Positions 1 through 21,702 are shown, counted from the stretch's first letter. The stretch: DNA of 64,000 nt from an uncultured archaeon (GCA_963782915.1 CAWALK010000020.1:256001-320000), one strand, 5' to 3'. Numbers and translations are program-made. Notes: generated by a model not told the origin, from the letters alone.

Positions 1-321
1 CCGCTCATTATTCAAGGAGTGTTAATGCATGCAATTTAGGCCCTATCAATAAAAGTCGTGAACAATAAATTTGAGTTATAATAGGAAAAAGGAGGGAGAG
101 GACAAGAGTCGTCGTCTTTTTTCTCCCTACTTCTCTTTTTGAATAGCTTTGGTTTATCCATTGCTACGCGGTAAATTGGATCAGTGCCGCTTGGCTTGTG
201 GTTGCATTCGATCTGCATCCTGCGTTAGCCTGCGAGCTTCTTTTCTTTTTGGCTCTTATCCTCACTTAAACTACTGGTGGGTTTAGTGTTATATAATTTG
301 CGGAAATCCCTCTGGATAGGT

Positions 322-400
322 TTAGTCAAGGAATGTAGACTAACCCTTAGTCAAGAAACATGAACTAAAAACTGCTGATTAGTCAAGGAACCTGCACAAG
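322..400. promoter_or_regulatory. Three tandem 22-bp dyad sites, TTAGTC-N10-GACTAA (putative transcription-factor operators)
   Basis: 322-343 TTAGTCaaggaatgtaGACTAA (perfect dyad); 347-368 TTAGTCaagaaacatgAACTAA; 379-400 TTAGTCaaggaacctgCACAAG. All three begin TTAGTCAAG(G/A)AA. Confidence 0.55.
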
Positions 401-559
401 AACCCTTTAATTTCTATCCGATCCAAGGCTTTATTTGTGGAGAAACATGCCAAAAAACAGTTCATCCGTCTATAAAATCTTCTTTGAATCCACTAATTTT
501 TCACCTCAACTGCAGTACCCTTGGACAGAAGAGTTGCAATCTGAACAGGGGGAGGCTTC

Positions 560-1666
560 CTGAACCAACTAAGAGGCCGCCTAGTAAACGTTGACCTGAT
601 TCGAACCATCGCCATGATCGGTGTAATCCTCCTACATGCATCAGGCCGCTTCATAATAACCCCCGAAGAAATCAACCAGCTTAGCCCATTGGAGTTTACC
701 CGCTGGAGCATCGTGGACGTCTATCAAAGCATCGCGGTTCCCTTGGGCGTTCCATTATTCCTAATGCTATCCGGCGCTCTTTTGTTGCAACCCCAAAAGA
801 AAGATACCTTGCCGGTTTTTTTCAAGAAAAGATGGGCCAGAATCGGTTTACCCTCCCTGTTTTGGGGCACCGCATATTTCGCATGGGATTTTCTGGTCCA
901 AAATATTCCCTTCTCCGCGGGAGTAATAGTTCAAGGCATACTCAATGGTCCCTATACGCAACTCTGGTACCTCTATGTGCTCGTCGGTCTCTACTTTTTG
1001 ACTCCGATACTGCGCATATTCATGGCTCATGCAGATTCGACGATGATAAAATACTTCATAATCTTGTGGACCGTTGGCGTAGCCATCATACCCTTCTTGA
1101 GCTTATTCAGCATTTACAAACTAAACGATAACGTCTTCGCACTCACTGGGTACGTTGGCTTCTTTGTGTTAGGATCTTACCTATCAACCGTGCACATACG
1201 CCGCAGAACTCTTGGAGCTCTCTTTATTTCCGGCGTCGCCTTAACCGCACTTGGCACATATGCCTTAGCCGCAACAAAGGGCGGGACAGAAATGTACTTT
1301 CTACAACAATACTTTAGCCCAACAATCATCTTAGCCTCAGTCTCCGCGTTTCTGCTGCTAATGACAATTAAGCCCCCCACCATTCAGAAAGACAGCAGCC
1401 CCTCTAAAGTCAACAAGCTAATCAAATTGATCAGCGTAAACACTTTAGGCATATTCTTCATCCACGTAATGATAATTGAATCCATACAATTGGGCTACTT
1501 TGGTTTCACAATGAACCGCACCACACTTAACCCCGTCATCGAGGTTCCATTGTTAACGGCAATCGTGCTGTTTGCTTCTCTTGGGATAATTCTTTTACTC
1601 AAAAAGATACCATATCTAAAACGGTTGATTGATGGGACATCTGAACATTTGGGGGGCGAGGAATGA
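560..1666 (+). CDS. Acyltransferase-3 (OafA/YiaH-like) multi-pass membrane O-acyltransferase
   Basis: Motifs VDLIRTIAMIGVILLH, VPLFLMLSGALLL, KKRWARIGLP, QLWYLY, TLGIFFIH; about 10 TM segments. The frame stays open upstream of the ATG at 614 to a CTG at 560 that follows GGAGG (551-555); in-frame stop at 542. Confidence 0.85.
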   Translation: MNQLRGRLVNVDLIRTIAMIGVILLHASGRFIITPEEINQLSPLEFTRWSIVDVYQSIAVPLGVPLFLMLSGALLLQPQKKDTLPVFFKKRWARIGLPSLFWGTAYFAWDFLVQNIPFSAGVIVQGILNGPYTQLWYLYVLVGLYFLTPILRIFMAHADSTMIKYFIILWTVGVAIIPFLSLFSIYKLNDNVFALTGYVGFFVLGSYLSTVHIRRRTLGALFISGVALTALGTYALAATKGGTEMYFLQQYFSPTIILASVSAFLLLMTIKPPTIQKDSSPSKVNKLIKLISVNTLGIFFIHVMIIESIQLGYFGFTMNRTTLNPVIEVPLLTAIVLFASLGIILLLKKIPYLKRLIDGTSEHLGGEE

Positions 1667-2322
1667 ATAGAAAAAAGTTGATGATGCTAGCGGCTGGATT
1701 AGTTGTCCTGCTCATTTCGTCAGGGTTGGTAGCATACTACCTATTCGCTGACAAAGCTTCAGAGTCAATCCGCGTTGCCTGCGTCGGAGACAGTCTCACC
1801 CAATCAACCGAATACCCCTATGACCTGTGGAATCTGCTGGGCAACCAAAGCTATAGCCTCCGCAATTTTGGTGCAGGCTCAACCACAGTTACGCTGCAAT
1901 CAGAAACACCCTACATGAACACAACCGTATTCCAAGACGCCCTAAACTTCCAGCCAAACATCGTAATCATCATGCTTGGAACCAACGACGCCCAACCCAG
2001 CTTGCACCAATTCAACGCAAGCTTTGTCGGTGACTATGTGAAGTTGGTGACGGCATTTCAGGGGCTTTCAAGTAAACCTGAAGTGTGGGTTGTTTTACCC
2101 CCGCCGATTATCAGCAACCAATCGGGCAAAATGGATAGTGCCTATTTCGAGGACACTATAATTCCAGGTATCATGCAAGCGGCAAACGAGACGGATGTGC
2201 CGGTAATTGATGTTTATTCGGCGTTTGCCGAGCGCCCCGATTATTATCTGGATGGGGTCCACGTGAATAGTGAGGGTGCAAAATTAATCGCTGACACGGT
2301 ATATTCGGCTGTTTTTTCCTGA
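1663..2322 (+). CDS. Membrane-anchored SGNH/GDSL esterase
   Basis: N-terminal hydrophobic anchor; block I GDSLT, block III GTND, block V DGVH; ATGA overlap with the upstream acyltransferase. Confidence 0.9.
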   Translation: MNRKKLMMLAAGLVVLLISSGLVAYYLFADKASESIRVACVGDSLTQSTEYPYDLWNLLGNQSYSLRNFGAGSTTVTLQSETPYMNTTVFQDALNFQPNIVIIMLGTNDAQPSLHQFNASFVGDYVKLVTAFQGLSSKPEVWVVLPPPIISNQSGKMDSAYFEDTIIPGIMQAANETDVPVIDVYSAFAERPDYYLDGVHVNSEGAKLIADTVYSAVFS

Positions 2323-2337
2323 TGGTGAGTAGCCGAC

Positions 2338-2691
2338 CTATTTTTCTTGTTTTGCAGTTGTTTTTGGGGTTGCGAGTTGTTTTCTGATTATGAGAAACAG
2401 CGCCACAAACAGTGCTGCCGCAACTACAGCTGAGGTTGCACCCATTATGAGCCATGCTTGCCATGCTGGCATGAAGGTTTCCAAATAACGCAGGGACCCG
2501 ATGAGGAAAAACAGTGCAGCTGACCCCGCCATAGAGATACCTGAGCACATAAGTACAGCGCCCGTGATAGAGATTATTAAGAGTTTTTTCAGGCGTGCTT
2601 TAAGGGCTGCTTCTTGTTTATTGGCATATTCTTTTAGGGCTGCTTTTAGTTGGTCGAAGAATTGAGTGATTAATTCTTTAAGCTCCGTTAT
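2338..2691 (-). CDS. Two-TM membrane protein, YqjE/phage-holin-family-like
   Basis: The 70-aa ORF extends in frame upstream (TELKELITQFFDQLKAALKEYANKQEAALKARLKKLL...) to an ATA at 2691 after an AGGTGG RBS-like site. Amphipathic helix, two TMs and a PAWQAWLIMG turn. Confidence 0.5.
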   Translation of the reverse strand: MTELKELITQFFDQLKAALKEYANKQEAALKARLKKLLIISITGAVLMCSGISMAGSAALFFLIGSLRYLETFMPAWQAWLIMGATSAVVAAALFVALFLIIRKQLATPKTTAKQEK

Positions 2692-2869
2692 TGTTTTTAC
2701 CCACCTAAAAACTGACTTTGCCCTGACGGTTTTTGTTGGCAGTTGGTTTAGGGCTGAACAATTTTTAAGGCTGTGTGGTTGCCAGCTAACAGCAACAGTT
2801 GTTTAATGGTGTACTTTCAGGGAAAGGGTAACTCTTACCTATTTGCAATAGACCAAAAACCGTCCTGTT

Positions 2870-2897
2870 CTGCTTGCGGTTTGCTCTACAACCAGCC
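2870..2897 (+). repeat. 28-bp dispersed repeat, copy 1
   Basis: CTGCTTGCGGTTTGCTCTACAACCAGCC, 26/28 identical to 42929-42956. Confidence 0.75.
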
Positions 2898-3239
2898 AGC
2901 AACCCAAACAATAACCCAACACCAAAACAAGCACTAATCACCTAAAACCCTCCATTTCCTTTCGGGTATTTAGTGAAGTTAAATCTGGTTTTTTCCACAC
3001 AAGGGCTTATCCGACCTCAATTATGAAAGGCAGCCTTCAGTACTCCAAAGGCAGAATCGAAACTATTGTTTATGCATCCGTTTGCATTTTCCACAGCCAC
3101 TCAAAGCAACAACAGACCTGAAACGTCGGTCAATCCATGGGGAAAACAGCAAGCATGCAGCCCACAGGAGAGGTCAAACTTACCGCTTTTCCCAGAGATG
3201 CCTACACAAAATAGCCCTATCACTAAACAGCCCTTATAA

Positions 3240-3306
3240 GAATTAACATATAGCTAACGCTGAGTCTAAAGACTGGTAATCAGGTTGGAGCTGTGGGAAA
3301 AGGTCA
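3240..3306. repeat. ~67-bp direct repeat B, copy 1 (3' flank of a secreted-protein gene)
   Basis: GAATTAACATATAGCTAACGCTGAGTCTAAAGACTGGTAATCAGGTTGGAGCTGTGGGAAAAGGTC aligns without gaps to 4240-4306. Confidence 0.9.
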
Positions 3307-4047
3307 TTGCTTCAAGTTTGCGGTTTTTCGATGGCTAATTACCACAGCAACAGCAAATACCAACAGAAGCAAAGGCACAATGGCCAACCAAGATAACTCT
3401 GGAACTGTTGGAGAGAGTGTAGGTGTTGGATTGTTGCTTTCTAATATGGTTACTGTTTGGGTCGGGCTCCAGTCACTTGATACGCCTGTAAACTTGTAAT
3501 AACTGCCCAAGCTTACTGTACCGCCGCCAACATCAGCAATATGCCCTATCTGTGCTTGCACTTCAAAATCTTCTTGTCCCTCATGAACACCAAAAATAAA
3601 TGTCGTGTTAGCCGCTTCTGATTGGGTGAAATAAGGAAAAACCCCTCTGCTGATAATCATACCATTCCAAGGAGTGGCAGTTACTCCATCAGGATTAAAA
3701 GGGAAATAAGTCCATTGGGTTCCGTAATGTCCTTTGTATCTAAAATTATAGTATAAGCCGATGTAGTTGCCGTTGGAGTCATTGTATGGCGTGAAAGGTT
3801 GGTTCTTAACCGTGACTTCAATAGACCTATTATCTACGTGATAACCTGCTTGGATTGTTATGTTCTGCCCTGTGTATTGGTCTATTCCATATTTAGGTGG
3901 AACATCATAAGAATAGTCAACATATCTAAGGGTAAATTCTGGTACAGATGGCTTAGGTATAGACTGAGCAGAAGTAAGACTAACTAGCGATAAACTTGAA
4001 ACCATCAGAAAGATGGCAACTAACAGGAACGCTTTCTTTCTTCCCAT
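3304..4047 (-). CDS. Secreted/cell-surface protein (KPSVPEFT family) with PEF-CTERM-like sorting tail
   Basis: Signal peptide, KPSVPEFT motif, Tyr/Gly-rich beta domain, PTPTLSPT linker, VPELSWL + TM + basic tail; paralog of 4305-5114. Confidence 0.8.
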   Translation of the reverse strand: MGRKKAFLLVAIFLMVSSLSLVSLTSAQSIPKPSVPEFTLRYVDYSYDVPPKYGIDQYTGQNITIQAGYHVDNRSIEVTVKNQPFTPYNDSNGNYIGLYYNFRYKGHYGTQWTYFPFNPDGVTATPWNGMIISRGVFPYFTQSEAANTTFIFGVHEGQEDFEVQAQIGHIADVGGGTVSLGSYYKFTGVSSDWSPTQTVTILESNNPTPTLSPTVPELSWLAIVPLLLLVFAVAVVISHRKTANLKQ

Positions 4048-4169
4048 ATGATGTAACCAGCAAGAAATGATAAAAATATTCTTTCAAGTTAGCGGTAGAA
4101 CCAAAACGGAGGGTGGGTACACTGCATCGCTGGAAAAGGTAGTTAAGTGCCCTTCAAAGGGTATATCAC

Positions 4170-4231
4170 CTTTAAACTTAGGCGTCAGCGCCTAGTCACA
4201 TGCAGAAACGGCTTCTCTTCAGCTGCAAGCG
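4170..4231 (-). pseudogene. Terminase large-subunit 3' remnant, shortest copy (about 15 codons plus downstream flank)
   Basis: Minus strand reads LAAEEKPFLHVTRR*, homologous to PLATGEKPFLYVVRR* (5303-5350) and PLAQEEKP (6350s). Confidence 0.65.
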
Positions 4232-4239
4232 CGAGCTGA

Positions 4240-4306
4240 GAATTAACATATAGTCAACGCTGAAACTGAAGACTGGAGATCAGGCTGGAACTGTGGGAAA
4301 AGGTCT
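4240..4306. repeat. ~67-bp direct repeat B, copy 2
   Basis: GAATTAACATATAGTCAACGCTGAAACTGAAGACTGGAGATCAGGCTGGAACTGTGGGAAAAGGTC; lies directly after the stop of 4305-5114. Confidence 0.9.
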
Positions 4307-5114
4307 ATTTGCTCAAGTGAGCGGTTTTTAGATGCCTTCTAAAAAGCAATACCGATAGAGCCACCGCAATTAGCGCAACCACTGCAATGATAATTAAGAC
4401 ATCCAAGGGCAAGGTGACTGAATTGGTAGAGTTACCATTTGTGTCTGGTGCAGTCGGTGTTACAGTAGGCGTTGAAGTGGTAGTTGAAGTTTGACCTATT
4501 ATTAATGTTTGGGTGTTGCTCCAATCGCTATATTGGCCTACAAAATGGTATTGTTTATCCCGATAATACATGTAGCCTGCTATTGCCTGTACTTGGGTAT
4601 CAAGAGAGACACCCTGAGGAACTCTCCAAACGCCCGGGATCTTGATGGTTACGGTAGTATATTCGGCGCTGGATTGTGAAAAAGCGGGGGCAGAAGGTCT
4701 CTCCTCAAGGGGAATGAATGACCCGCCATAAGTGTTTGAAGACTGACCGTCTGGCATAAATGGATAATAGTCCCACTCTGCTCCATAAGCGCCTTTTACC
4801 CTGAAGTTATAGTACAGACCAATATGGGTCCCGTTTGCATCCGTATAGGGAGTAAATAGTTGATTTTTTATGGTGAACTGTATCGACCTGTTATCGACAT
4901 GGTAGCCATTTTGTGTGATGATGGTTTTTCCTGTGTATTGGTCGATTCCATAGGTTGGTGGTACATCATAGGATAGGTCTATGTATTTTGGAGTGAATTC
5001 TGGAACAGACGGCTTGGGTGTTGATTGAGCAAAAGTTGGCTTAACCACACTCAGGCTTGGGATAGCTAATAGAACTAAAAGCAATAGAATCAAACTTTTG
5101 CTCAGTAATCGCAT
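4305..5114 (-). CDS. Secreted/cell-surface protein (KPSVPEFT family) with C-terminal TM anchor
   Basis: Signal peptide; KPSVPEFT..YIDLSYDVPPTYGIDQYTG is near-identical to the paralog; Thr-rich linker, TM and basic tail. Confidence 0.8.
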   Translation of the reverse strand: MRLLSKSLILLLLVLLAIPSLSVVKPTFAQSTPKPSVPEFTPKYIDLSYDVPPTYGIDQYTGKTIITQNGYHVDNRSIQFTIKNQLFTPYTDANGTHIGLYYNFRVKGAYGAEWDYYPFMPDGQSSNTYGGSFIPLEERPSAPAFSQSSAEYTTVTIKIPGVWRVPQGVSLDTQVQAIAGYMYYRDKQYHFVGQYSDWSNTQTLIIGQTSTTTSTPTVTPTAPDTNGNSTNSVTLPLDVLIIIAVVALIAVALSVLLFRRHLKTAHLSK

Positions 5115-5302
5115 AAGTACCCTGTGAAGTCGCTTTCAATAAAAGTTTACTGAAATCTTGTTTATGAGTAGTAACATCTTAACTGTGCAGATACATAGAC
5201 GGAAAAAGGCTCAACCACCTTTTCAAAAACTTAGGCGAGGGTTTTTCAATCCAAATGCTAGAATTCTGGTTATGTTGCTTATACCCTCACTATCTAAAGG
5301 CG

Positions 5303-5443
5303 TCAACGCCTAACCACATAAAGAAACGGCTTTTCTCCGGTTGCAAGCGGTTAACTATACCGCAGAGCATCGGTCGCATGGTCGTTTTCTTTGATGTCTT
5401 CCTGATACTCCAACAATTCGCTAATCAAGTTAACATAGCGCTT
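5303..5443 (-). pseudogene. Terminase large-subunit C-terminal remnant, middle copy
   Basis: Minus strand reads KRYVNLISELLEYQEDIKENDHATDALRYS*PLATGEKPFLYVVRR*; NDHAxDALRY motif with an internal TAA. Confidence 0.75.
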
Positions 5444-5531
5444 CATAGCACTCACACCGAACTAACAACGGGCCAAGGATGCCTCCGAAATGTTCATTTT
5501 GTTGGCAAAGGTAAAACTTGTAGGTCTCTTT

Positions 5532-6242
5532 ATGAGCGAAGTTTTAAAAGTTATCAGGGATCGTCAATCCTCCAGGGTACAATTTGACCCCAATAGACCA
5601 ATCTCCAAAGATAATATCAATCAGATACTGGAGTCTGCACGATGGTCACCTACAGGACATAACATGCAGAACTACGAAATCATGGTTATTGACGACAAGG
5701 CGCTGCTTGAAAAAATTGGCAGCGTAAAATCATGCGTCTTAGAGGAATTCTTACGCGACAACTATGAGCACCTGTCTTTCTCCGAGGAAGAACTCAAGCG
5801 GAAGAAGACTGGCATTTTATCAACTGGTTTTCCACTTGACTGGATTGACCCAGCCAAATTCCCCCAAATTGCACGTTCTCCCCCGATACCGATTAGCAAT
5901 TCCATACGAGGCAGCCCAACCCTTCTAATGGTTTTGTATGATTCAATAAAGAAAGCACCTGCCCTTGCCGTAGATGTTTATGGTTTCATTAGTTTAGGCT
6001 GCCTCATGGAGAACATCTGGCTGACTGCACAGGCTCTGGGAATTAGCATGCAAATTCTAAGTTTATCTGCCACAGTATCTGTTGAGAAGGAACTAAAACA
6101 GATCCTTGGAGTTCCCGACCCGCTAAAAATTGCTTACACAATCCGTCTGGGATATCCACTAATGCCCACAGAAAGCTTGCGCGTCAGAAGAGACATCGAG
6201 GACTTCACCCATCATAATCGGTATGGTCAAAAAGGAATTTAA
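5532..6242 (+). CDS. Nitroreductase family protein
   Basis: IRDRQSSR, ARWSPTGHNMQ, ENIWLTAQALGI and IRLGYP motifs; likely start is the ATG at 5532. Confidence 0.9.
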   Translation: MSEVLKVIRDRQSSRVQFDPNRPISKDNINQILESARWSPTGHNMQNYEIMVIDDKALLEKIGSVKSCVLEEFLRDNYEHLSFSEEELKRKKTGILSTGFPLDWIDPAKFPQIARSPPIPISNSIRGSPTLLMVLYDSIKKAPALAVDVYGFISLGCLMENIWLTAQALGISMQILSLSATVSVEKELKQILGVPDPLKIAYTIRLGYPLMPTESLRVRRDIEDFTHHNRYGQKGI

Positions 6243-6313
6243 CAAGCTTCAATACGCACCCATCTAAAAACCGCTCTTTTTTAGCGGGCGTTATTGCTTC
6301 TTTCATAGCAATC

Positions 6314-6650
6314 TCAAGTAAGGTACACCCTCAACATCGAACCACATACAGACGGCTTTTCTTCTTGAGCGAGCGGCAAACTATACCGTAGAGTATCAGT
6401 CGCATGGTCGTTTTCTTTGACGTCTTCCCGATACTCCAACAATTCGTTGATAAGGTTGACGCAGCGTTTGCTTACAAACTGGCGGGGCTTCCCATCAATA
6501 GCAGGAGTTAGGCGGCTTACAAGTTCCCCGCAACCCATCTTTACGTTTGAAAGTATAGGGCTTAGCGTTTAACCCTGCGCGGCAAAGCTTCAGAATCGAC
6601 TGGGGAAAAGGGGCATCGCACCAAAACGTTCCCTCACCCCATTCCTCTCT
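6314..6650 (-). pseudogene. Terminase large-subunit nuclease-domain remnant, longest copy (~110 aa)
   Basis: With one frameshift near 6525 it reads REEWGEGTFWCDAPFPQSILKLCRAGLNAKPYTFKRKDGLRELVSRLTPAIDGKPRQFVSKRCVNLINELLEYREDVKENDHATDTLRYSLPLAQEEKP, matching the PBSX-type TerL C-terminal pattern (CD..P..I..L...G..A; C.NLI.EL..Y; NDHA.D.LRY). Confidence 0.8.
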
Positions 6651-6917
6651 CTATCTTTGTTTGTGAAGTTTGCTTATTTGTGCAGGTTGGCGTGTGGGTG
6701 GTTTAGTTTTTGTATTGGGTTGGGTGTTGTGTGTTTGTTGGTTGTTCTGAATTTTGTGGCCCTTTGTGTTGTGCCACGGGTGGTACAAGACGGCTTATCT
6801 GTAATCAGCGGCTCTTCGGGGGTACGGGCGAACCGAATTGAATGGGCCATGCTAGTGCCCGAACTCATTGCGCTGTTCATTGCTATCATTGATTGCAAAG
6901 TAATTCAGGAATTCAGT

Positions 6918-7004
6918 CTATATATAAGGGAGGGGGTAGGTCGGCAAAGCAGCAAAGCTGCGTTTTATAGGAGATAGGGGGTCTATGCAGAGCAGCAGCA
7001 GCCT
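6918..7004 (+). repeat. Dispersed G-rich repeat pair, locus A
   Basis: CTATATATAAGGGAGGGGGTAGGTCGGCAAAGCAGCAAA (6918-6956) followed by TTATAGGAGATAGGGGGTCTATGCAGAGCAGCAGCAGCCT (6965-7004). Confidence 0.85.
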
Positions 7005-7024
7005 AGTCTATTTATTCTTTATAA

Positions 7025-8128
7025 CAGAACAAAGTTTATGAATAGCGCTGTAACCAGCTTTTGGGTATCAAGCATGACTAGCTACAGCGCCATCCCTAGA
7101 CGAAGGGATAAGCTAAAGGCTTACTTATATTTACAGAACAATCGGCAGCTTCCTTAATCTCAAACACGCCCGAAATAGCCAAGAAACCACCAAAACGCTC
7201 ATCCTAGGAGCAGGGACAACAGCTACATAGAAGGGTGCGCACAAAACCTCCAACTTGCGCAAACAGTCAGAAACCACGAAAACAACAAAACCCTCAACAA
7301 AGACCCAAATCAACCGGCAAACAATCTAGCAAATGAAACAAAAAGGCGCCCTAAACAAGCCACTGGTTGTAGCCATAGACTGGCATGATGAAATGTACGA
7401 CGGTGACCCTAAAGCAAAAGGCGTAGTGGGAACCCACACAAGAACGGCTAAACCATGCCTACAGATATGAACGATAAGTGTTGCTACCGGTCAGAGATTA
7501 ACCTTAGCAGCAGCAACAATGATTCATAGAAGCAAGCTGTGGCATGTCAAGTATCTCCTAGACGTGTCTCTGAGTTGGGCTTAACAGTTAAGCTGGTGCT
7601 GTTGGATCGAGGCTACTTCTCCACTCAAGTGATAAACTATCTAGATGACGCCAAAATAAAGTACATAATGCATATTCCTTGGCATAAGGAGCCCTTAAGA
7701 GCCGGATTGGATGTATTTTATACAACGACTACGCATAAGAAGTCGGTTTTGGATCAGGCGACTTTTAGGCTTGTAACTGTGCGTCAAAACAAGAAGCTGC
7801 TTATTTTTGCTACCAACACCATGTTTAAGCCCAAGGTGCTTAAGAAGACGTTTAGGCGGCGTTGGGGGATTGAGACTTCTTATCGTATGATTGGGTTGTT
7901 TTTGGCTAAGACTACCTCTAAGCTCTATAGGTTGAGGCAGCTGTATTTCTTTTTGGCGGTTGTACTCTATAATTTGTGGGTTTTGTGGAATTTCAGGCGT
8001 AGAAGGCGTGTTAGGACGTATGCTCTTAAGAATGCTGTTAGGTTGTGTTTAGTCTTGTCTTGGCTGCCTGATTTGGAGGCTTACGGTTGATTTTTAGAGG
8101 AGGTGAAACACGATTTTTTGATCTACTG
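7025..8128 (+). mobile_element. IS4-superfamily (ISH3-like) insertion sequence with a disrupted transposase
   Basis: DDE transposase fragments VVAIDWHDEMY.GD, LVLLDRGYFS and RRWGIETSYR. The right end ...GATCTACTG fits a CAGTAG-type end. The putative left end CAGAAC at 7025 and the ATAA flanks (7021-7024, 8129-8132) are less certain. Confidence 0.7.
7074..8090 (+). pseudogene. DDE transposase (IS4/ISH3 family), multiple frameshifts and stops in the 5' half
   Basis: The intact 3' ORF 7539-8090 carries DRGY and RWGIETSYR; upstream pieces lie in different frames. Confidence 0.8.
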
Positions 8129-8160
8129 ATAAGGGAGGGGGAGGTACCTCTGAGGTAGGT
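8129..8160 (+). repeat. Dispersed G-rich repeat unit abutting the IS right end
   Basis: ATAAGGGAGGGGGAGGTACCTCTGAGGTAGG; its TATA-like 5' part appears to lie at 7017-7024, on the other side of the IS. Confidence 0.65.
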
Positions 8161-8461
8161 AGGCTCGTAAACGCACACAACAAACCCAAAGAAACCTCAA
8201 CAAGCAACCCAAAAGCACCATTTGCCACAGGACAAGTGCCTGCCTGCTCAACATTCAGTCTCCACCAGTCGTCAACACCCCAAAACAAGGCGGTAAATGC
8301 CCGAAAACACTAAGCACCCCAGCGCCAAATACCGCTATTATCGCTAGTTTTACCATCAAATAGCAATCTGTCCTTCAGGCATTTTCTAACCCTTTATGTG
8401 CGATACGTTTTATAACATCTTCAGGAAGATGGGTAGTTAAATCGGAGGGGGAAACCAACAA

Positions 8462-8896
8462 ATGAGTGCAAGATGGAAACGAACTTTAAAGAATAAAAAA
8501 TGGTTAGACCTAAACGAGTTATCAACGTCTAAATCCAGAAAATCCAGGGCTTCCCAGAAAGCAAAGGTTCCTGCACCGAGTTTTCGCCCGTCCAGCGGCC
8601 ACGCGAAGCGTCAAGATCTTAAACCATTAATCGACATTTTCCAGGATAGTAACAACATCACAATCTTCGCAGAAATCGCAGGCTTTAATAAGGAAACCTT
8701 TAAGATTAATGTAAAAGACCAGAAAATCACGCTGTCAGCCAAATCAAAAGAGCGCAGATACTATAAAAGTTTAAATTTACCGAAGGTAGTCATTCCAGAC
8801 GAAACGCACACGAAATACAAGAACGGCGTGCTAGAAATCAAACTTAAAAAAGCTGAATCAACAGCAATAGGAAAAGCAGATCAACATGCCCCATAA
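8462..8896 (+). CDS. Hsp20/alpha-crystallin small heat-shock protein
   Basis: PLIDIFQD..ITIFAEIAG, YYKSLNLP and YKNGVLEIKLKK. Confidence 0.9.
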   Translation: MSARWKRTLKNKKWLDLNELSTSKSRKSRASQKAKVPAPSFRPSSGHAKRQDLKPLIDIFQDSNNITIFAEIAGFNKETFKINVKDQKITLSAKSKERRYYKSLNLPKVVIPDETHTKYKNGVLEIKLKKAESTAIGKADQHAP

Positions 8897-9302
8897 ACTA
8901 AGAAAAATCAGGAAATTCCGAGGCTCAAGAACAGTCGGTTACGGAAGAATAGGACAACACCGCGACAGTGGCAGTAAAGGCAACCGCAAAGTAGGACGCC
9001 ATAAACACCTCTGGAGCAAAGTCGTAACTAGCGAACCTAACTACTTCGGAAAACACGGATTCGTTTCTCCACAGAGCAAACACAGAATCGAAAACACCAT
9101 CAACCTAGTCAAACTCGACCAACTCGCTTCCGGCAAAGAAATCAACTTAACGGAACTAGGCTACACCAAACTTCTCGGCACAGGCAAAATAACCAAAGCA
9201 CTGACAATCACCGTTCCGGTCGCCTCCAAATCCGCCATGGCAAAAGTCCAAGAAGCAGGCGGAAAACTCATAACCACCGCAGCCTCCACCGTCGAGGAGT
9301 AA
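8886..9302 (+). CDS. rpl15: 50S ribosomal protein uL15
   Basis: RKFRGSRTVGYGRIGQHR, YFGKHGF, KLLGTG and KVQEAGG; directly upstream of secY. Confidence 0.95.
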   Translation: MPHKLRKIRKFRGSRTVGYGRIGQHRDSGSKGNRKVGRHKHLWSKVVTSEPNYFGKHGFVSPQSKHRIENTINLVKLDQLASGKEINLTELGYTKLLGTGKITKALTITVPVASKSAMAKVQEAGGKLITTAASTVEE

Positions 9303-9311
9303 CTAAGCTAA

Positions 9312-10742
9312 ATGGCCGGAAGATTCCTCAGCCTTTTCAAACCAATCGGTAGAATATTGCCCGAAATTAAGAAGCCTGAACGTAAAGTCAGCTTTAACGA
9401 GAAACTCTTCTGGACCGCACTTGTCCTAGTCGTTTTCTTGGTGATGACCGAAATCCCACTGTACGGTGTAAGTGCAGGTGCACAGGATAACTTTGGGTCC
9501 CTTCGTGTCATCTTTGCTTCAAACCAAGGAACATTAATGGAACTCGGCATTGGTCCAATCGTCACCGCCGGTTTAATTCTACAGTTACTCGCAGGATCAA
9601 ACATCATAAAATGCGATTTATCAAACCCTGAAGACAGAGGACTTTTTACCTCTGCAAGCAAAGTCTTCAGCATCCTCCTAACAGCCGTCCAAGCAGGCGC
9701 ATACATCCTCAGCGGCATGTACGGCACCTTACCTGAACTCGGCATAGGCGTAATACTGGCAATATTCATACAACTCATCTCAGCAGGCATAATCGTCATG
9801 TTAATGGATGAACTTGTCCAGAAAGGCTGGGGTCTAGGCAGCGGCATCAGCCTCTTCATCATGGCAGGTGTGGCCCAAAACATCCTCTGGTCAATGTTCT
9901 CACCACCAACAGGCCTATTCGTCAACCAACTATCCGCTCTCCTAAACGGACAAATCACAGCAGCACAATGGGTATTCGGCACACAATCCGGCCTCCCATC
10001 ACTAGTAGGCTTCATCGCTACCATAGCAGTATTCCTAATAGTCATCTACCTACAAGGTGTCAGAATCGAACTCCCAATGAGTTACGCAGGCTACAAAGGC
10101 TTCCGCAGCAGATACCCAATCAAACTACTCTACGTCAGCAACCTACCCGTCATCTTCGCAAGTGCACTATTCGCTAACGTGTACTTCTTCACCCAACTAC
10201 TCTGGAGCCAATTTGGACAACCACCGCCAGGCACAAGCTGGTTCTTCCAAATAGTAGGCGACTACAACGTTACAGTATCCGCAGAAGGAGCCCGAAGCGT
10301 TTCACCAGTAGGCGGATTAGCATACTACGTCACAGCACCCCGCAACATACAAACCGTCGCACTAGACCCACTGCATGCAGCCGTATACCTTGGCATAGTC
10401 ATAGCCTTCTGTGCCGTCTTCTCGCTAATTTGGCTTGAAGTCGGTGGCTTAGGACCAAACAAAGTCGCCAAACAACTAATGGACAGCGGCATGCAAATCC
10501 CAGGCTACAGACGCAGCGAACGCCCCATCGAAGCCATCCTCAAACGCTACATACCTGTAGTCACAGTACTGGGTGGCATAATCGTTGGGTTAGTGGCTGG
10601 TATGTCCGACTTCTTCGGAGCCTTCGGAACAGGTACAGGTATCCTGCTATCAGTAGGCATCATCTACCAGTACTATGAGTTGCTGATGCGTGAACGCGCG
10701 GCAGAAATGTTCCCAGCGTTTAGACGAATACTGGGCGAATAA
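9312..10742 (+). CDS. secY: Protein translocase subunit SecY/Sec61alpha
   Basis: GTLMELGIGPIVTAGLILQLL, KGWGLGSGISLFI, YPIKLLYVSNLP and GTGILLSVGI. Confidence 0.98.
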   Translation: MAGRFLSLFKPIGRILPEIKKPERKVSFNEKLFWTALVLVVFLVMTEIPLYGVSAGAQDNFGSLRVIFASNQGTLMELGIGPIVTAGLILQLLAGSNIIKCDLSNPEDRGLFTSASKVFSILLTAVQAGAYILSGMYGTLPELGIGVILAIFIQLISAGIIVMLMDELVQKGWGLGSGISLFIMAGVAQNILWSMFSPPTGLFVNQLSALLNGQITAAQWVFGTQSGLPSLVGFIATIAVFLIVIYLQGVRIELPMSYAGYKGFRSRYPIKLLYVSNLPVIFASALFANVYFFTQLLWSQFGQPPPGTSWFFQIVGDYNVTVSAEGARSVSPVGGLAYYVTAPRNIQTVALDPLHAAVYLGIVIAFCAVFSLIWLEVGGLGPNKVAKQLMDSGMQIPGYRRSERPIEAILKRYIPVVTVLGGIIVGLVAGMSDFFGAFGTGTGILLSVGIIYQYYELLMRERAAEMFPAFRRILGE

Positions 10743-10748
10743 GCGTAA

Positions 10749-10790
10749 ACGGCTTTTAGCCGCTTAACTCTTTTTTCATTTTTTTATTCA
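10749..10790 (+). terminator. Putative terminator after secY
   Basis: Small hairpin CGGC-TTTTA-GCCG followed by long T tracts. Confidence 0.45.
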
Positions 10791-10897
10791 ACCAAAATAC
10801 ACACTACTGCTTTTGCTAAAAACCAAAAATTTTGTGGATGAGTTAATAAACCTCCAAAGTGTGCTTCCCTACAAAAAATAATTGGGACGCTGATACA

Positions 10898-11437
10898 TTG
10901 AACGTTCTCTTGATTTACGGAACAAGATGGGGCGGGACAGAAAAAGTAGCCCAAACAATCGCCAAAGCCATAGAACAAGAAGGAAACTCCGTCGATGTTT
11001 TCGACGCAAAAAAGAGCCCAGAAAACATTGACTCCTATGACTTAGTTATTGTCGGAAGCGGCCTTAGAGCTGACAAATGGACCAAAGAATCCGTAGAGTT
11101 TATAGAAAAAAACGCTGACACTCTAAAAACAAAGAAAACCGCTTTGTTTGTCAGTTGCTCGATGGCTGACCGTAAAGATGCAGGCTATGATGTAGGCAAA
11201 AAGCGTTATCTCGACGACTTCTCCGCACAGCATAACCTATCACCAATAGCCTTAGGTTACTTTGGCGGTTTAATGGACTTCAGTTACAGCCATGGCTTGT
11301 TAGTCGATATCATAGTTAGAGTCAACCGCAGAAACCTCCGCAAAAACGGCTTAAACACCGCAAAAGTGCACGATACACGCGACTGGGCAGTGATTGAGGC
11401 GTGGGGGCACGAAGTCGCCAAACTGGCACTCAGCTAA
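10898..11437 (+). CDS. Flavodoxin-domain protein (HemG/Flavodoxin_5-like)
   Basis: LLIYGTRWGGTEKVA FMN loop, YDLVIVGS, FGG and DTRDW; likely TTG start at 10898. Confidence 0.85.
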   Translation: MNVLLIYGTRWGGTEKVAQTIAKAIEQEGNSVDVFDAKKSPENIDSYDLVIVGSGLRADKWTKESVEFIEKNADTLKTKKTALFVSCSMADRKDAGYDVGKKRYLDDFSAQHNLSPIALGYFGGLMDFSYSHGLLVDIIVRVNRRNLRKNGLNTAKVHDTRDWAVIEAWGHEVAKLALS

Positions 11438-11593
11438 CTTCCCCTGTCTTCTAATTTCAGCGTAAAATCCAACATGTCTTATTCATCTAAAAAAGCGATT
11501 TTTCGTTACTCCTTTTACTTCTAATCAAGTGAAAATAGTTATTAACAAGTAACATGTACGCATAGTTCAAAGAGCGGCAAGAGGAAAATCGTC

Positions 11594-12115
11594 GTGTCTG
11601 AAATATTGAGTGCAATCACTTCGTTGCCAACGGCAACATTGATTATTATGGGTATTGCAGCGGGAATTGCTTTCGCTAACTCTGGAGTTAACAGAGTTTT
11701 AATTAACTACTTTATCGGCTGGGAGCAATACCGAGTTATGCAAAAAGAAATGGCTGAATACCGCTCTGAAACCATGGCAGCAGCAAGAGCTAACGATAAG
11801 AAGCAAATGGAGAAACTTAAAAAGAAACAATCCCAAATCAACAACATGCAGCAGAAAATGTTCAAGCCCCAGATGCTTCAAATCGGAATATCATTCGTTT
11901 ACCTCATAGTATGGTTCCTGGTATTGATCCCCGTCTTCGGAAGCACTCCAATGGCCTATATCCCTGGAATCGGTACTATTGGAAACGCTGCTTTCACTGT
12001 AGGTGGAGCACCAGTCGTAAATGCCATCCCCGTCGTATACTGGTACCCAATCTGCTCGCTATTCTTCGGGTTACTCTCACAACGCGTCATCGGCATAATG
12101 CCCATAGAACAATAA
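11594..12115 (+). CDS. EMC3/TMCO1/DUF106 (Oxa1-superfamily) membrane insertase
   Basis: TM, coiled coil (MQKEMAEY...KKKQSQINNMQQKMFKP), TM, then YWYPICS; usual position between secY and cmk. Confidence 0.85.
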   Translation: MSEILSAITSLPTATLIIMGIAAGIAFANSGVNRVLINYFIGWEQYRVMQKEMAEYRSETMAAARANDKKQMEKLKKKQSQINNMQQKMFKPQMLQIGISFVYLIVWFLVLIPVFGSTPMAYIPGIGTIGNAAFTVGGAPVVNAIPVVYWYPICSLFFGLLSQRVIGIMPIEQ

Positions 12116-12141
12116 CAAATTAGAAGCGGAGAAACCCAAAA

Positions 12142-12753
12142 ATGGCCAACCCAAAAGACACCTGCCAACCCATCCCCAAAACAGTCATCTGCATTTCAGG
12201 TATGGCCGGAACAGGAAAAAGCACCCTAGCAAAAAAGTTGGCCCAAAAATACAACCTAAAATATTACTCCGGCGGCGACGCCCTAAAAGACCTTGCAAAA
12301 GACGAGGGCTATGACATCAATGCGCAAGGTTGGTGGGAAAGCCCCGTTGGACTAGATTTTCTGCAAAAAAGAGTTAACGACCCCAAATTCGACAAAGCCG
12401 TTGACAACAAACTCTTAGAATACGCAAATCAGGGCAATGTTCTATTGGATAGTTGGACTATGCCTTGGCTGCTTAAGGGTGGCTTCAAAATTTGGCTTGA
12501 AGCATCATTTGAGAAGAGAGCCGCAAGAGTTGCAGAAAGAGATAACCTGACCTACACTGAAGCTGTTAAAGTGCTAGGCGAAAAAGAAGGTCATACAAAG
12601 AGCATTTATAAAACACTCTATGGATTTTCGTTAGGCGACGATCTGGCTCCTTTCGATTTTGTGTTAGATACTGATAATTTGAATGCTCCTGAAGTTTTCG
12701 AGGTTCTATGCCGCGTTATGGATAACGTGGTTCTTTCCGCTTCAACTGTTTAA
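12142..12753 (+). CDS. cmk: Cytidylate kinase (archaeal type)
   Basis: P-loop ISGMAGTGKST, YSGGD, FKIWLEAS...RAARVAERD and FDFVLDT. Confidence 0.9.
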   Translation: MANPKDTCQPIPKTVICISGMAGTGKSTLAKKLAQKYNLKYYSGGDALKDLAKDEGYDINAQGWWESPVGLDFLQKRVNDPKFDKAVDNKLLEYANQGNVLLDSWTMPWLLKGGFKIWLEASFEKRAARVAERDNLTYTEAVKVLGEKEGHTKSIYKTLYGFSLGDDLAPFDFVLDTDNLNAPEVFEVLCRVMDNVVLSASTV

Positions 12754-12857
12754 TTCAGTTTTGGAATAGAACAATCTTCTAGAAGAATGTTCCATAGCGC
12801 TTAAAACCAGAAGCAAACAATTAGCCCTTCTAAGATTCAAGAGAGAGGCGAAGGGGA

Positions 12858-13244
12858 ATGCATAGATTAATAAATTATTTGGCAATAGGGCTTTTTAGCA
12901 CTATAATCGCTCTATGCCTTCTTTTAGCATATCGCTATATAGACCCCCAATCCAGCGTCACTTTGATAATATGCAATTTATTATTCATAACCCTATTTTT
13001 CCAGCTCAACGGCAGCTTAACCCTGAAGAGTATTCTCTTAACCGCCTGTAACATCCTGGGGTTATTCTCGAACTATCTCTTCAAATACATCTCCGACGCT
13101 GGATATGCGCTATTTGGTTCAACATTCCACAATTTCTACGCTCTCATCTTTCCACTTTTAACTCTCATGTGGATTATTCCCTTTTGGTCCTTAAGCCTGA
13201 GCTTTCTACCTAAACTGCCAAACGTATCCGAAGAACCCTCGTGA
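12858..13244 (+). CDS. Hypothetical 4-TM membrane protein
   Basis: Hydrophobic ORF with a GGGG-type RBS, 4 bp upstream of the GT2 gene. Confidence 0.65.
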   Translation: MHRLINYLAIGLFSTIIALCLLLAYRYIDPQSSVTLIICNLLFITLFFQLNGSLTLKSILLTACNILGLFSNYLFKYISDAGYALFGSTFHNFYALIFPLLTLMWIIPFWSLSLSFLPKLPNVSEEPS

Positions 13245-13248
13245 AAAT

Positions 13249-14532
13249 ATGCTAACTGAAATCCTAAACGTATTCTTTTTCTGTTCAGTGATCCTAATTA
13301 GCGCATACTTGGTACGCCACTATATCTTCACATTAACGGTTGTACGAAATGCCAAAAAACTTTCAGCCATCCATTACCCTCGGGTCAATACATACGAGCC
13401 TACAGTTTCCATTTTGATTCCTGCACATAACGAAGAACAAGTCATCGGCGCTTTGTTGCAAAAATTATCTGAACTCCAATACCCCAAAGGCAAACTTGAC
13501 GTTATAGCCATAGATGACGCGTCTAATGATAAAACGGGTTTGATCGCAGATGAGTACGCAAAAAAGTGTAAATTCATCAAAGTGTTGCATCGTGACTCTA
13601 AAGTGGGTGGGATTGGGAAGCCAGCTGCACTTAATGCTGCACTAAAACAAGCCACTGGCGAAATTGTTGTTTGTTTCGATGCAGACTATACACCCCATCC
13701 AGACCTTGTCCGTAAGATTATAGAAAAATTTGTTGACCCACAAGTTGGAGCCGTCCAAGGGAGACCTGTTGTGTTAAACGAACCGCAGAACCTAGTGACT
13801 CGTCTAATAGCGTTGGAGCGAATCGGTGGCTATAGAGTTGATCAGCAAGCACGTGATCTTTTGGGTTTGATTCCGCAATTAGGCGGTACCGTCGTGGGTT
13901 TTAGACGAAGCCTCGTAATGGATTTGGGCGGTTTTGATGAGGCAATGCTGACCGAGGACACAGACTTAACCTTCATGATTGCTCTTGGGGGCTACCAAAT
14001 TCGCTATGCGGGGGACGCTGAATGCTATGAGGAAGCGGTTGCCTCATGGAGGGCTTATTGGCGTCAAAGGCATCGATGGGCAAAGGGGCATATGCAGGTA
14101 TGCATAAAATATGCTTTAAAAGTTGTAAAAAGTGAGCATTTGACGTTTAGACAGAAACTTGATGGTTTGCTTCTGTTGCATGTCTATTTTATGCCCCTAT
14201 TAACCATGTGTTCATTGTTAGTGGGTGCTTACCTGATTATTTCTGGCTCAATTGTAGCTCCTGCGTTATGGTTTGTTGTGCCTATTTCTATGTACTGTTT
14301 TGTGGGTAATTATGCACCCTTCTTTGAGGTTGGAATTGGCGCTTATTTGGATGGGCGGAAAGAGATTCAATGGTTAGCGCCCTTACTGATTTTTTCTTTT
14401 CTCTTTAGTATGCTGATTTGTGTTAAGGCATTTTTTAGTTTGGTCATAGACAAAATCCTTGGCCGAAAAAGCCCATGGGTACATACTATCCATTCGGGAA
14501 ACGGAAATTGTTATATTGCAAACCAATCCTAA
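13249..14532 (+). CDS. Processive GT2 glycosyltransferase (cellulose synthase/PgaC-like)
   Basis: PAHNEE, DDAS.D, GKPAALN, FDAD, TED and QRHRW (QxxRW) motifs; N- and C-terminal TMs. Confidence 0.92.
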   Translation: MLTEILNVFFFCSVILISAYLVRHYIFTLTVVRNAKKLSAIHYPRVNTYEPTVSILIPAHNEEQVIGALLQKLSELQYPKGKLDVIAIDDASNDKTGLIADEYAKKCKFIKVLHRDSKVGGIGKPAALNAALKQATGEIVVCFDADYTPHPDLVRKIIEKFVDPQVGAVQGRPVVLNEPQNLVTRLIALERIGGYRVDQQARDLLGLIPQLGGTVVGFRRSLVMDLGGFDEAMLTEDTDLTFMIALGGYQIRYAGDAECYEEAVASWRAYWRQRHRWAKGHMQVCIKYALKVVKSEHLTFRQKLDGLLLLHVYFMPLLTMCSLLVGAYLIISGSIVAPALWFVVPISMYCFVGNYAPFFEVGIGAYLDGRKEIQWLAPLLIFSFLFSMLICVKAFFSLVIDKILGRKSPWVHTIHSGNGNCYIANQS

Positions 14533-18589: not shown

Positions 18590-18603
18590 AGTGTATTCCT
18601 CTG

Positions 18604-19155
18604 TTAGAGGTAGCTTTTAAGTTGTGGGAAAACCCGCAGCACAGCATGCATGATTGGGACAGCTATTAGTAAGCCAACGAGCATCTGCACCACGTTAAAT
18701 GGAACTTCTAGTAATACTGCTGCGACTGGAAAACCAAGCACAGCTATTTCATATGTGAAGTAGCCAAAAATCATAATCAAGCCGCCCAATACGACTGATA
18801 TTGTGGCGCTTATGGTTATGCTCCGGGTTTTTTTCAGCAGTTTCCTGTTTAGATAACCCACTGTGAATCCTTCAAGTGCCTTGATGACTAAGGTGGCTGG
18901 GGCAAACACTGCGCCGCCAGGAACAAGCAAATCTGCTATAGCTGCTCCTGCTCCTGCGAATGCGCCTGCGAAGGGACCTAAAACTAGGGCGGCAACGTAG
19001 ATTATGGTTTCTCCCAAGTTGAAGTATCCTGTGGTTGCGGGGATAGGTATAACGAAGATGTAGGTGGCGACTGCTACGAGGGCTGCAAATACAGCTCCCG
19101 CTGCGATGGTGGCTGCTGTTCCGAAAGTTCCGTATCTTCTAGTCATAGACTTCAC
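18604..19155 (-). CDS. ECF transporter S component
   Basis: AALVAVAT..FVIPIPATTGYFNLGE, ADLL, APATLVIK.EG and PFNVVQ. Confidence 0.88.
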   Translation of the reverse strand: MKSMTRRYGTFGTAATIAAGAVFAALVAVATYIFVIPIPATTGYFNLGETIIYVAALVLGPFAGAFAGAGAAIADLLVPGGAVFAPATLVIKALEGFTVGYLNRKLLKKTRSITISATISVVLGGLIMIFGYFTYEIAVLGFPVAAVLLEVPFNVVQMLVGLLIAVPIMHAVLRVFPQLKSYL

Positions 19156-19346
19156 AGCGTTATAGTTTTAAGTTAACTTATTTTTACTTGCTCCCTATTA
19201 AGCATCATGACTATATTATTCCTACTTGGAATTCTTTCGTTGGTTGTAACTACCATTCTGTAATCACATAGACTTAAGAATTCTTTTCCTTCTAAAATTT
19301 TTGAGTTAATCTAAATTTAGCCTATTAACATTTTTGAGATGTTTTT

Positions 19347-21484: not shown

Positions 21485-21597
21485 GGCTGCGGCAATTGAC
21501 CAAAAAACCGCTTTACCCTTCGTAATCCGCCTACCTTATCCAATCAAACCCCAACAAGCGCATAAGCTATGAGCTGGAAGCCTAACAGATGTGGTGA

Positions 21598-21696: not shown

Positions 21697-21702
21697 GTAA
21701 AG

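Follow-up and report, generated by a model that had tools for sequence, protein, structure and literature searches.

Stacked viral terminase tails and cargo genes in a Bathyarchaeia chromosome, probably the decayed remnant of a provirus cargo hotspot

Ends of a viral terminase gene alternate with cargo genes in an archaeal chromosome. The DNA analysed is a stretch of 64,000 nucleotides (nt) from an uncultured archaeon (GCA_963782915.1 CAWALK010000020.1:256001-320000), called the window below, with positions counted over its whole length. It belongs to a 25-contig metagenome-assembled draft genome of 3.28 Mb (G000, with C11, C15, C18, C19 and C23 among its contigs); other G numbers denote relative genomes, of which G014 is a single contig, and L numbers denote loci, L018 being the C18 locus and L043 the G014 provirus. 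Viral tail pieces are read on the minus strand from 6650 downward, and in this direction the array consists of a fragment of terL, the gene of the terminase large subunit TerL (fragment A), a nitroreductase gene on the opposite strand, TerL tail B, a gene for a secreted protein (SP1), a short repeat (repeat B), TerL tail C, a second secreted protein gene (SP2) and a second copy of repeat B, which leads into a conserved non-coding stretch named D and the start of a protease gene (Table 1). A preliminary description of this DNA had proposed three co-oriented TerL 3' pieces alternating with cargo genes, and all of these parts are present. The pieces do shorten stepwise (~110, ~46 and ~15 codons), with no sign that the shortening is more than incidental, and they have diverged from each other: fragment A and tail B are 80.9% identical over 141 nt (E 3.6e-31) and tails B and C 82.7% identical over 52 nt (E 3.9e-8) in blast searches against the whole 3.28-Mb genome, a similarity that sequence comparison places far beyond chance. 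The two copies of repeat B (3239-3305 and 4239-4305) are 87% identical, and units in the window are spaced 1000-1118 nt apart. A small hairpin, AGGCGTTGACGCCT (5311-5298), spans the terL stop TGA of tail B, and the same hairpin follows tail C, reaching 4180. The opposite-strand gene is a nitroreductase and the two secreted proteins are paralogous (51% amino acid (aa) identity), both as first described.

Table 1. Features of the array and of its borders in the window
Feature	Position	Strand	Details
TerL C-terminal fragment A	6317..6650	-	pseudogene, ~102-110 codons; two in-frame stops upstream of 6565
Nitroreductase-family gene, cargo 1	5490..6242	+	PF00881 1.8e-24
TerL tail B	5303..5455	-	final ~46 codons, internal TAA; terL stop TGA at 5305-5303
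SP1, cargo 2, secreted with C-terminal anchor	4305..5114	-	
Repeat B copy 1	4239..4305	-	67 nt; 87% identical to 3239-3305
TerL tail C	4185..4231	-	final ~15 codons, stop TGA 4187-4185
SP2, cargo 3, secreted with C-terminal anchor	3304..4047	-	
Repeat B copy 2, full D leader and decayed protease start	3047..3305	-	viral remnant ends here
D	3100-3262	-	also L043:12571-12735 and 8 other loci
Multi-copy MITE-like (miniature inverted-repeat transposable element) repeat abutting and truncating fragment A	6653..6998	.	blastn against own genome
Insertion sequence (IS) element, frameshifted DDE transposase	7008..8163	+	open reading frames 7333-7470 and 7539-8090; PF01609 DDE_Tnp_1 2.3e-9
Multi-copy short repeats at the other remnant end	2847..3020	.	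>25 genome-wide matches of 38-66 nt

Fragments A and B belong by homology to the terminase large subunit of Caudoviricetes, namely to its C-terminal RNase H-like nuclease domain. Fragment A corresponds to residues ~336-437 of an intact 444-aa TerL (tblastn 1.9e-30; residues 6-107 of a 114-residue tail query, 57% identity) and is 88.6% identical over 317 nt to the terL of a provirus on C18. Tail B matches residues 69-110 of the intact TerL tail at 90% identity (tblastn E 1.35e-19). The fragments themselves have no TerL match among Pfam and NCBIfam profiles and match the PHROGs terminase large subunit weakly (3.6e-4 for A, 0.07-0.1 for B), so their identity rests on the full-length homologues (444-449 aa), which match Terminase_6N above the cut-off (1.6e-5) and Terminase_6C marginally (1.5e-4, 22.2 bits against a cut-off of 22.6). 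The terminase assignment of the preliminary description therefore stands through the full-length homologues and not through the fragments by themselves, while its label 'PBSX-type' does not hold: a full-length homologue scores 28.5 bits against the PBSX TerL equivalog TIGR01547, whose cut-off is 105.05. Intact homologues lie together with portal, capsid and protease genes, whereas the window contains fragments only. Searching positions 1-12000 of the window with 12 proteins of an intact relative (tblastn, E<=1e-4) returned the TerL tails and nothing else, hence no portal, capsid or protease, in line with the earlier remark that portal, capsid and integrase genes are missing.

The intact homologues are genuine TerL genes of a ~40-kb head-tailed temperate provirus at tRNA-Lys. 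The provirus gene order is ParB-like, ABC-type ATPase, GNAT, p174, TerL, a variable slot, D, protease-scaffold, cement, HK97-type capsid, portal and p109. In G014, the head module is followed by a block with a response regulator and a CheB/CheR-kinase, by neck and tail genes (phrog_5 1e-21, phrog_290 5e-15, phrog_400 6e-9), by a type-I-restriction-like block and by a tyrosine integrase (phrog_1 1.4e-7), and the whole provirus of ~39.8 kb is bounded by an 18-nt direct repeat holding the tRNA-Lys 3' end, the attachment site (att) core. A head-only parent, either gene-transfer-agent-like or a satellite, was considered and dropped because the neck and tail genes, the integrase and the att repeats appear beyond a second cargo block. 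Further TerL tails and an intact parent, for which the preliminary description had looked to the rest of the genome, both exist: relatives carry intact proviruses, and C18 of the same genome carries a decayed one, in which the full-length terL is frameshifted and one more orphan tail is present. C11 (protease to portal) and C19 (D, p93) hold other remnants of this virus family. A query with the TerL N-terminus matches 15 of 61 genomes, all in the genus of the window's genome, and 17 of 21 TerL loci in species-representative genomes are filed under Bathyarchaeia or Bathyarchaeota, three of these only as 'uncultured archaeon'. The four others (L052, L055, L056 and L061, TerL 52-75% identical) are filed under bacterial metagenome-assembled genomes (MAGs; Bipolaricaulis, Gallionella twice, Gemmatimonadales) and are probably mis-binned contigs.

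The C18 provirus (C18:5323-18526) is itself chimeric: its left part up to a truncated D matches G014 locus 1 at 95.6% identity, and its right part, from D to portal together with the neighbouring kinase gene, matches G014 locus 2 at 94.4%. Its terL is frameshifted and its neck and tail genes are fragmented. A CheB/CheR-histidine-kinase gene occupies the terL slot in C18 and in G014 locus 1, and a 66-68% identical kinase paralogue lies after the head module and before the neck and tail genes (L018:9207-12433 versus 18492-21756; L043:17685-21322), a position that suggests a second cargo site inside the provirus. A different arrangement occurs at L070, L071 and L081 (G120, G129 and G142), where an orphan tail, cargo and a ~85-nt truncated D are followed by two small genes and by the ParB-like, ABC-ATPase and GNAT genes; no head genes were detected within the fetched stretch, and the arrangement may represent a rearranged or headless virus derivative. 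A complete Bathy-6 MAG has been reported to contain a 46.8-kb siphovirus-like provirus with terminase and integrase (PMC11697101), and virus families have been proposed for head-tailed proviruses of Bathyarchaeia (10.1101/2023.08.24.554615). These share host class and virus kind with the proviruses described here, and the accessible portions of the two reports make no mention of a terL/D hotspot, orphan terL ends or stacked units. Our literature search on Bathyarchaeia terminases and proviruses, supplements not covered, returned nothing closer on such a hotspot or on isolated terL ends.

The point between the terL stop and D is a cargo hotspot. A cargo-free state exists in five of the six IMG/VR contigs that carry D, in which 2 nt separate the terL stop from the start motif of D, CTATA(A/T)GTTAATTCTTATAA; these five contigs comprise three distinct junction sequences and so represent at most three independent cargo-free viruses. 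In contrast to this empty form, all seven genome-borne copies with D hold 1.08-5.18 kb of mutually unrelated genes in the slot. The cargo includes a membrane protein, a CheB/CheR-histidine kinase, a PocR-histidine kinase, and Kelch, immunoglobulin (Ig)-like and NosD secreted proteins. L046 carries a RelA/SpoT-like protein, a phospholipase D (PLD) nuclease and a DruE-like helicase, L047 a protein with a weak TIR-like match, and L060 an ArsR-type regulator with a cysteine-desulfurase-like gene, both named by eye only. Homology among 12 aligned terL tails stops within ~10 nt of the stop codon. Unrelated cargo at the same site together with a cargo-free form is what defines an accessory-gene hotspot of prophages.

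D is a non-coding stretch of ~155 nt between terL (or cargo) and the protease gene and is the second conserved flank of the slot. It opens with an invariant 20-mer, as seen in alignment with the D of eight relatives, and this 20-mer reads like what we take to be an archaeal B recognition element (BRE)/TATA element. The D leader of the window is matched over 157 of 159 nt at 86% (blastn), and positions 3047-3305 are 81% identical over 236 nt to C18:13910-14142. Repeat B proves to be a composite: the SP 3' flank, an extension of ~40 nt that some relatives likewise carry ahead of D, and the opening ~17-25 nt of D itself (CTATATGTTAATTCT). Behind D, the window retains the decayed first ~15-30 codons of the capsid-maturation protease, reading VALSGCGKCKRMHKQ followed by a stop versus LSEGLGCGKCKRVHEQ in the intact protein. 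D is 84-95% identical at the nucleotide level between viruses whose capsid proteins are 58-65% identical in amino acids. Consensus folding predicts a long hairpin, which is uninformative because 0 of 44 pairs covary, and Rfam returns nothing at E<=1 for window positions 2800-7000. D may be the promoter or leader of the capsid-protease operon, a packaging signal, or both.

The viral DNA in the window is confined to the slot and its flanks. The part that resembles the C18 provirus starts at 6648, with ~110 codons left to the terL stop, and ends at 3047, ~22 codons inside the protease gene; positions 1-12000 show no such similarity elsewhere. Beyond 6650 the remnant is cut off by the MITE-like repeat, whose longest copies are 247-322 nt at 76-88% identity and whose ~40-nt core (6912-6957) has >30 matches, followed by the IS element, of which C15 and C23 hold copies 95.7% and 97.3% identical; its transposase fragment is IS4/IS5-type. 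At the other end, 2900-3020 is 87.8% identical to C19:18231-18353. Short multi-copy repeats with cores of 35-60 nt (6653-6998, 2847-3020 and 8129-8163) flank both remnant ends and the IS, and the MITE-like repeats may have caused deletions of viral DNA. Host genes surround the remnant: in G014, the interval between an SGNH-hydrolase gene and Hsp20/L15 has no similarity to window 2322-8373, though both host flanks are syntenic, and three other relatives have only the L15/SecY side in common with the window. Positions 1-14000 contain no tRNA gene, and a search of the window for the provirus att core, tolerating up to 2 mismatches, finds no copy.

That the repeats produced a false join or a false duplication during assembly is extremely unlikely. 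The source is a metagenome-assembled draft, and no read or contig was obtained across the whole array: in three DNA runs of one study (shares 0.05-0.11) the contigs are 151-251 nt long, and none of them spans the whole array or the junction of D with tail C. Among the sequencing runs listed as carrying this DNA, none is of RNA. The repeats, however, are short and diverged (47-150 nt, 80-87% identical), poor substrates for mis-assembly, and false joins or collapse are improbable for this reason. Short public contigs with 0-1 differences, which may come from the source sample, bridge positions 3047, 3305, 5455 and 6650, and the order tail-nitroreductase-tail recurs in the independently assembled single-contig genome G014.

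Sequence comparison indicates that the units of the array have different origins. In shared alignment columns, fragment A is nearest to the terL of L045 and C18 (85% and 84%), and tails B and C are nearest to that of L043 (88% and 86%). The two SP units have flanks that are 80-87% identical, interiors that are 24-74% identical per 50-nt interval with gaps (at most 37/50), and regions upstream of the SP1 and SP2 genes that cannot be aligned. A single [tail-secreted protein-repeat B] unit duplicated locally in tandem and diverged in place would account for the similar spacing, for the paralogy of SP1 and SP2, and for the same join of SP 3' flank and D extension at the end of both genes. Such an origin is nonetheless very unlikely, since the flanks are alike and the interiors and upstream regions are not, SP1 is nearer to a paralogue on C11 than to SP2, the first unit carries an unrelated gene on the opposite strand, and the tails group with different viral lineages. 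A single ancient tandem duplication, which the preliminary description had named as its own counter-explanation, is disfavoured on these grounds. Tail B and the second tail of C18 have a similar 5' edge and a common Cys-to-Tyr codon; a single event behind both was considered and rejected, as the two are 81% identical to each other and each has a closer match in an intact terL, not the same one in both cases (88% and 91%).

The nitroreductase module has moved or been renewed recently. The tail-nitroreductase-tail arrangement of G014 lies at a non-syntenic site (L068 8762-10007) and is 91.7% identical to the window over 1253 nt. From 6353 to 5367, across the junction of nitroreductase and tail B and ~90 nt into that tail, 26-30 of every 30 positions agree; deeper in either tail the figure drops to 16-23/30, and the similarity stops at the terL stop codon of tail B. 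The nitroreductase itself is 95.6% identical in amino acids to the G014 copy flanked by the same two tails, and 22 of 750 positions differ (synonymous divergence dS 0.069, dN/dS 0.28). The L15-SecY region of the two genomes, in comparison, is 79% identical. Because the identity profile breaks inside the tails and dS is 0.069 against 79% identical core genes, the module and parts of its flanking tails must have moved or been renewed recently, with crossovers inside the tails.

The longest reading frame of the nitroreductase begins 14 codons upstream of a second Met (~5532, MSEVLKV...), and the extension runs toward the edge of tail B; the second Met is likely the true start. SP1 is, by sequence similarity, a member of a large Bathyarchaeia-specific paralogous family: it has 28 matches at E<=1 in its own genome, 16 of them below 1e-9, its best paralogue lies on C11 (55%), its Atlas neighbours are Bathyarchaeota hypothetical proteins, and no Pfam or NCBIfam family matches it. 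Family members have a signal peptide, a conserved PKPSVPEF motif and a C-terminal membrane anchor, and at least 16 paralogues are present in G000. Genes of this family also lie inside the G014 provirus beside att (L043:5835-7411, between att and p93), and the family seems to travel with these viruses.

Orphan and stacked tails recur in other genomes. A 66-residue tail query matches 42 of 332 family genomes, 27 of 169 among the high-quality ones, and many of the matches are open frames of just 30-110 codons. Among 23 fetched loci, which were selected for short frames, 19 hold orphan tails. Five of these have a co-oriented D copy 0.6-3.2 kb further downstream, and the intervening genes include those for an ABC transporter, a catalase, a flavodoxin and a radical-SAM enzyme; a PAS kinase follows one further orphan tail. 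At L079, the sequence upstream of an orphan tail contains, at a distance of 14 nt, a partial tRNA (6600-6667; 3' two-thirds, with GAG in the anticodon loop and no ARAGORN call), and the tail is followed by a flavodoxin gene, D and a protease gene. Stacked tails are found at four loci besides the window. C18 has the order terL, kinase cargo, ~85 nt of D directly against a ~155-nt tail, small open reading frames, D and protease. G248 contains three tails and two ~5.5-kb units, unrelated to each other, that encode NosD, PQQ-propeller, Kelch and Ig-like proteins, and L058 contains two tails 7 kb apart. The fourth locus, in G014, is not an independent event because it is homologous to the first unit of the window.

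The junctions between units vary. Before tail C, ~17-25 nt of D are followed by a 7-nt filler, part of a small palindrome that extends into the bases after it. The combinations observed are ~85 nt of D against ~155 nt of tail in C18, ~17-25 nt of D against a 47-nt tail before tail C, and no D against ~150 nt of tail at tail B. No D remnant was detected between the nitroreductase and tail B, where the local alignment score was reached by 187 of 500 shuffles.

We consider the locus to be, with fair probability, the decayed multi-unit remnant of a cargo hotspot of a Bathyarchaeia head-tailed temperate virus, built by general recombination through its conserved flanks. The 3.6-kb remnant would derive from a virus of Bathy-6 Bathyarchaeia and be limited to the slot between the terL stop and D, the point at which related viruses carry different cargo. 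Slot units, each made of a terL 3' end, cargo and the start of D, would have come from different viruses or remnants and been joined head to tail by general recombination of the cell or the virus. Illegitimate or unequal joins would have created the junctions of D with tail and of cargo with tail, and homologous exchange within the conserved terL tails and D would later have swapped or renewed the cargo. The rest of the virus would then have been lost and one side cut by the MITE-like repeat and the IS. This order of events is inferred, and no dedicated enzyme need have taken part: neither positions 1-12000 of the window nor any cargo examined encodes an integrase or recombinase. The cargo genes stayed intact, plausibly as useful or harmless to the host, and selection may have kept them. 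The preliminary description had attributed the accessory-gene array to capture or recombination at the 3' end of terL and offered two versions, scars of serial provirus events and a virus-derived recombination platform. The first branch is supported by the hypervariable slot in relatives, the decayed slot in the window, the different origins of the units and the breakpoints in the tails. The second looks improbable: the array lacks a recombinase and attC-like structures, its junction positions are not uniform, and the provirus integrase uses an unrelated tRNA-Lys site.

Several observations weigh against construction by general recombination. Orphan-tail 5' edges are clustered: judged by eye, six of nine independent contexts begin 141-164 nt before the terL stop (the other three begin 114-126 nt before it, and there are longer pieces of 220-470 nt). 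In three independent contexts (C18, the L071/L081 family and L075) a truncated D copy breaks off at ~+85 to +100, and in two (window and L070) a D-start copy does so after ~17-25 nt. Random illegitimate joins would not obviously yield such clustered breakpoints. The clustering may come partly from a detection limit, tblastn missing pieces below ~30 codons, and partly from fragility at the apex of the predicted D hairpin. Tail duplicates are nearly absent from 15 other TerL loci, in which blastn-short found none but one 20-nt match in L057, so that tail stacking is not universal; the screen misses short copies, since it took inspection by eye to notice that L057 has ~45 nt of tail ahead of D. 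In L057 the cargo is also flanked by ~65-nt copies of the whole tail-end/D-start junction and looks like an inserted circle carrying the junction, which a site-specific process would give as well. Finally, a benefit of the cargo to the host is putative; the dN/dS of the nitroreductase rests on just 22 differences. Because the breakpoints are not evenly spread, two further explanations stay alive.

The breakpoints could, in the first of these, be physical ends of virion DNA, produced by terminase cuts or terminal repeats near terL -150 and D +85, and stacked units and orphan tails would come from linear viral genomes joined by their ends to one another or to chromosomal DNA. The C18 junction, with exactly ~85 nt of D against ~155 nt of tail, the recurrence of the same D end at L075 and in the L071/L081 family, where unrelated DNA follows it, and the orphan tail of L079, which begins ~146 nt before the stop and 14 nt from the partial tRNA, are all as this account would have them, and the high conservation of D relative to the capsid would fit a packaging signal. 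The shorter junction before tail C and the D-less junction of nitroreductase and tail B do not fit, however, and two units at a junction differ in cargo, as they would not if a terminal repeat had simply stayed unresolved. The apex of the predicted hairpin lies at the D breakpoint and is an alternative cause, and the short contigs (151-251 nt) of the three runs show no pile-up of ends. We regard virion ends as a quite improbable source of the breakpoints.

A dedicated site-specific cassette system, in which units are mobilised, for example as circles, and inserted at the terL-stop/D point by a recombinase with target sequences in the tail or the invariant D motif, would be a viral counterpart of integrons or cis-mobilisable cassettes. 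It would explain why cargo always lies at the same point, next to a D with an invariant 20-mer and tails that end ~10 nt from the stop, and why breakpoints cluster. The direct ~65-nt junction copies around the L057 cargo, a short GCGTTGAC repeat that flanks cargo in L043, L045, the window and C18 D2, and the D-start/tail order of the window, which is the expectation for a circularised unit, point the same way. Yet the recombinase that such a system demands is missing from the array and from the examined cargo, and the provirus integrase uses an 18-nt tRNA-Lys core that is unrelated to tail or D. Duplicated tails measure between ~8 and ~160 nt, D pieces between 0 and 85 nt, and the orientation of cargo varies. 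There is no consistent attC-like fold either: six strands folded as DNA give z values of -0.39 to -2.62 (C18 tail -0.5 and -1.1), and the only shared element is a 5-bp stop-codon hairpin that is absent from many tails. Nor do the units resemble an integrative element at a gene 3' end, given repeats of such uneven length and the absence of integrase genes from the examined cargo. We judge a site-specific system to be about as improbable as virion ends. It is likewise unlikely, if a little less so, that the terL-stop/D junction is a dedicated gene-capture site and not just a tolerated gap, maybe at a packaging cut or terminal repeat, where host genes are taken up, stacked as units and exchanged among viruses and chromosomal remnants without an integron integrase.

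General recombination at a virus hotspot has close parallels in known systems. Accessory-gene hotspots for defence and other 'moron' genes have been described in P2-like phages and P4-like satellites (PMC9122126); as far as the accessible text of that paper goes, they resemble the archaeal slot in having a fixed site between conserved genes with unrelated, partly defence-like cargo. The slot described here also has a cargo-free state and differs in its archaeal host, in the gap of 2 nt between the terL stop and the leader of the capsid operon, in cargo that consists mostly of envelope or secreted proteins, sensor kinases and redox enzymes, and in stacked units with partial terL ends and slot remnants that outlast the virus. 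Temperate phages and defective prophages exchange DNA by relaxed homologous recombination, according to the portion of PMC3945230 that we could consult. Crossovers in diverged terL tails (78-91%) and a cargo module common to the remnant and other genomes are similar to this, except that no phage recombinase, Rad52-like or other, is identified here and that the partners are inferred from sequence. In T4-type phages, promoter early stem-loop (PeSL) regulatory cassettes mediate modular shuffling (PMC2839356, PMC4122927, both as partially available). There, too, short conserved non-coding boundary motifs flank variable genes and are apparent recombination joints, whereas one flank of the archaeal slot is a coding 3' end and not a promoter-terminator motif, a single slot was studied, and no minicircles were shown. 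Integron gene-cassette arrays are also reported in Archaea (bioRxiv 10.1101/2022.02.06.479319 / PMC9668308), and what is accessible of this work suggests a visual likeness, in that short repeats alternate with single unrelated ~1-kb genes. The window differs in that positions 1-12000 contain no integron-type tyrosine recombinase with an attI, the sole transposase being a DDE fragment, in that its repeats are gene fragments and not attC hairpins, with varying lengths and junctions, and in that one cargo gene is inverted without consequence for the pattern. The locus is an unusually clear case of an otherwise ordinary process, combining prophage hotspots and morons, exchange among defective prophages and motif-flanked shuffling, in poorly known archaea.

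Bathyarchaeia are abundant uncultured archaea of sediment and soil, and to our knowledge their viruses are barely known. One temperate virus family of these archaea has a single, sharply defined cargo slot that carries host-type genes, including genes for sensor kinases, catalase, nitroreductase, flavodoxin, secreted or envelope proteins and defence-like proteins. The slot outlives the virus as small chromosomal remnants, with tail matches in 42 of 332 family genomes, and these remnants still recombine with related sequences, as a nitroreductase module shows 97% identity in genomes that reach 79% in their core genes. This provides a concrete and traceable path for virus-mediated gene flow in an archaeal lineage, and the terL tail together with D is a simple marker for locating such cargo. 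If the breakpoints do reflect a specific cutting or recombination activity, the slot would represent a new kind of cassette system.

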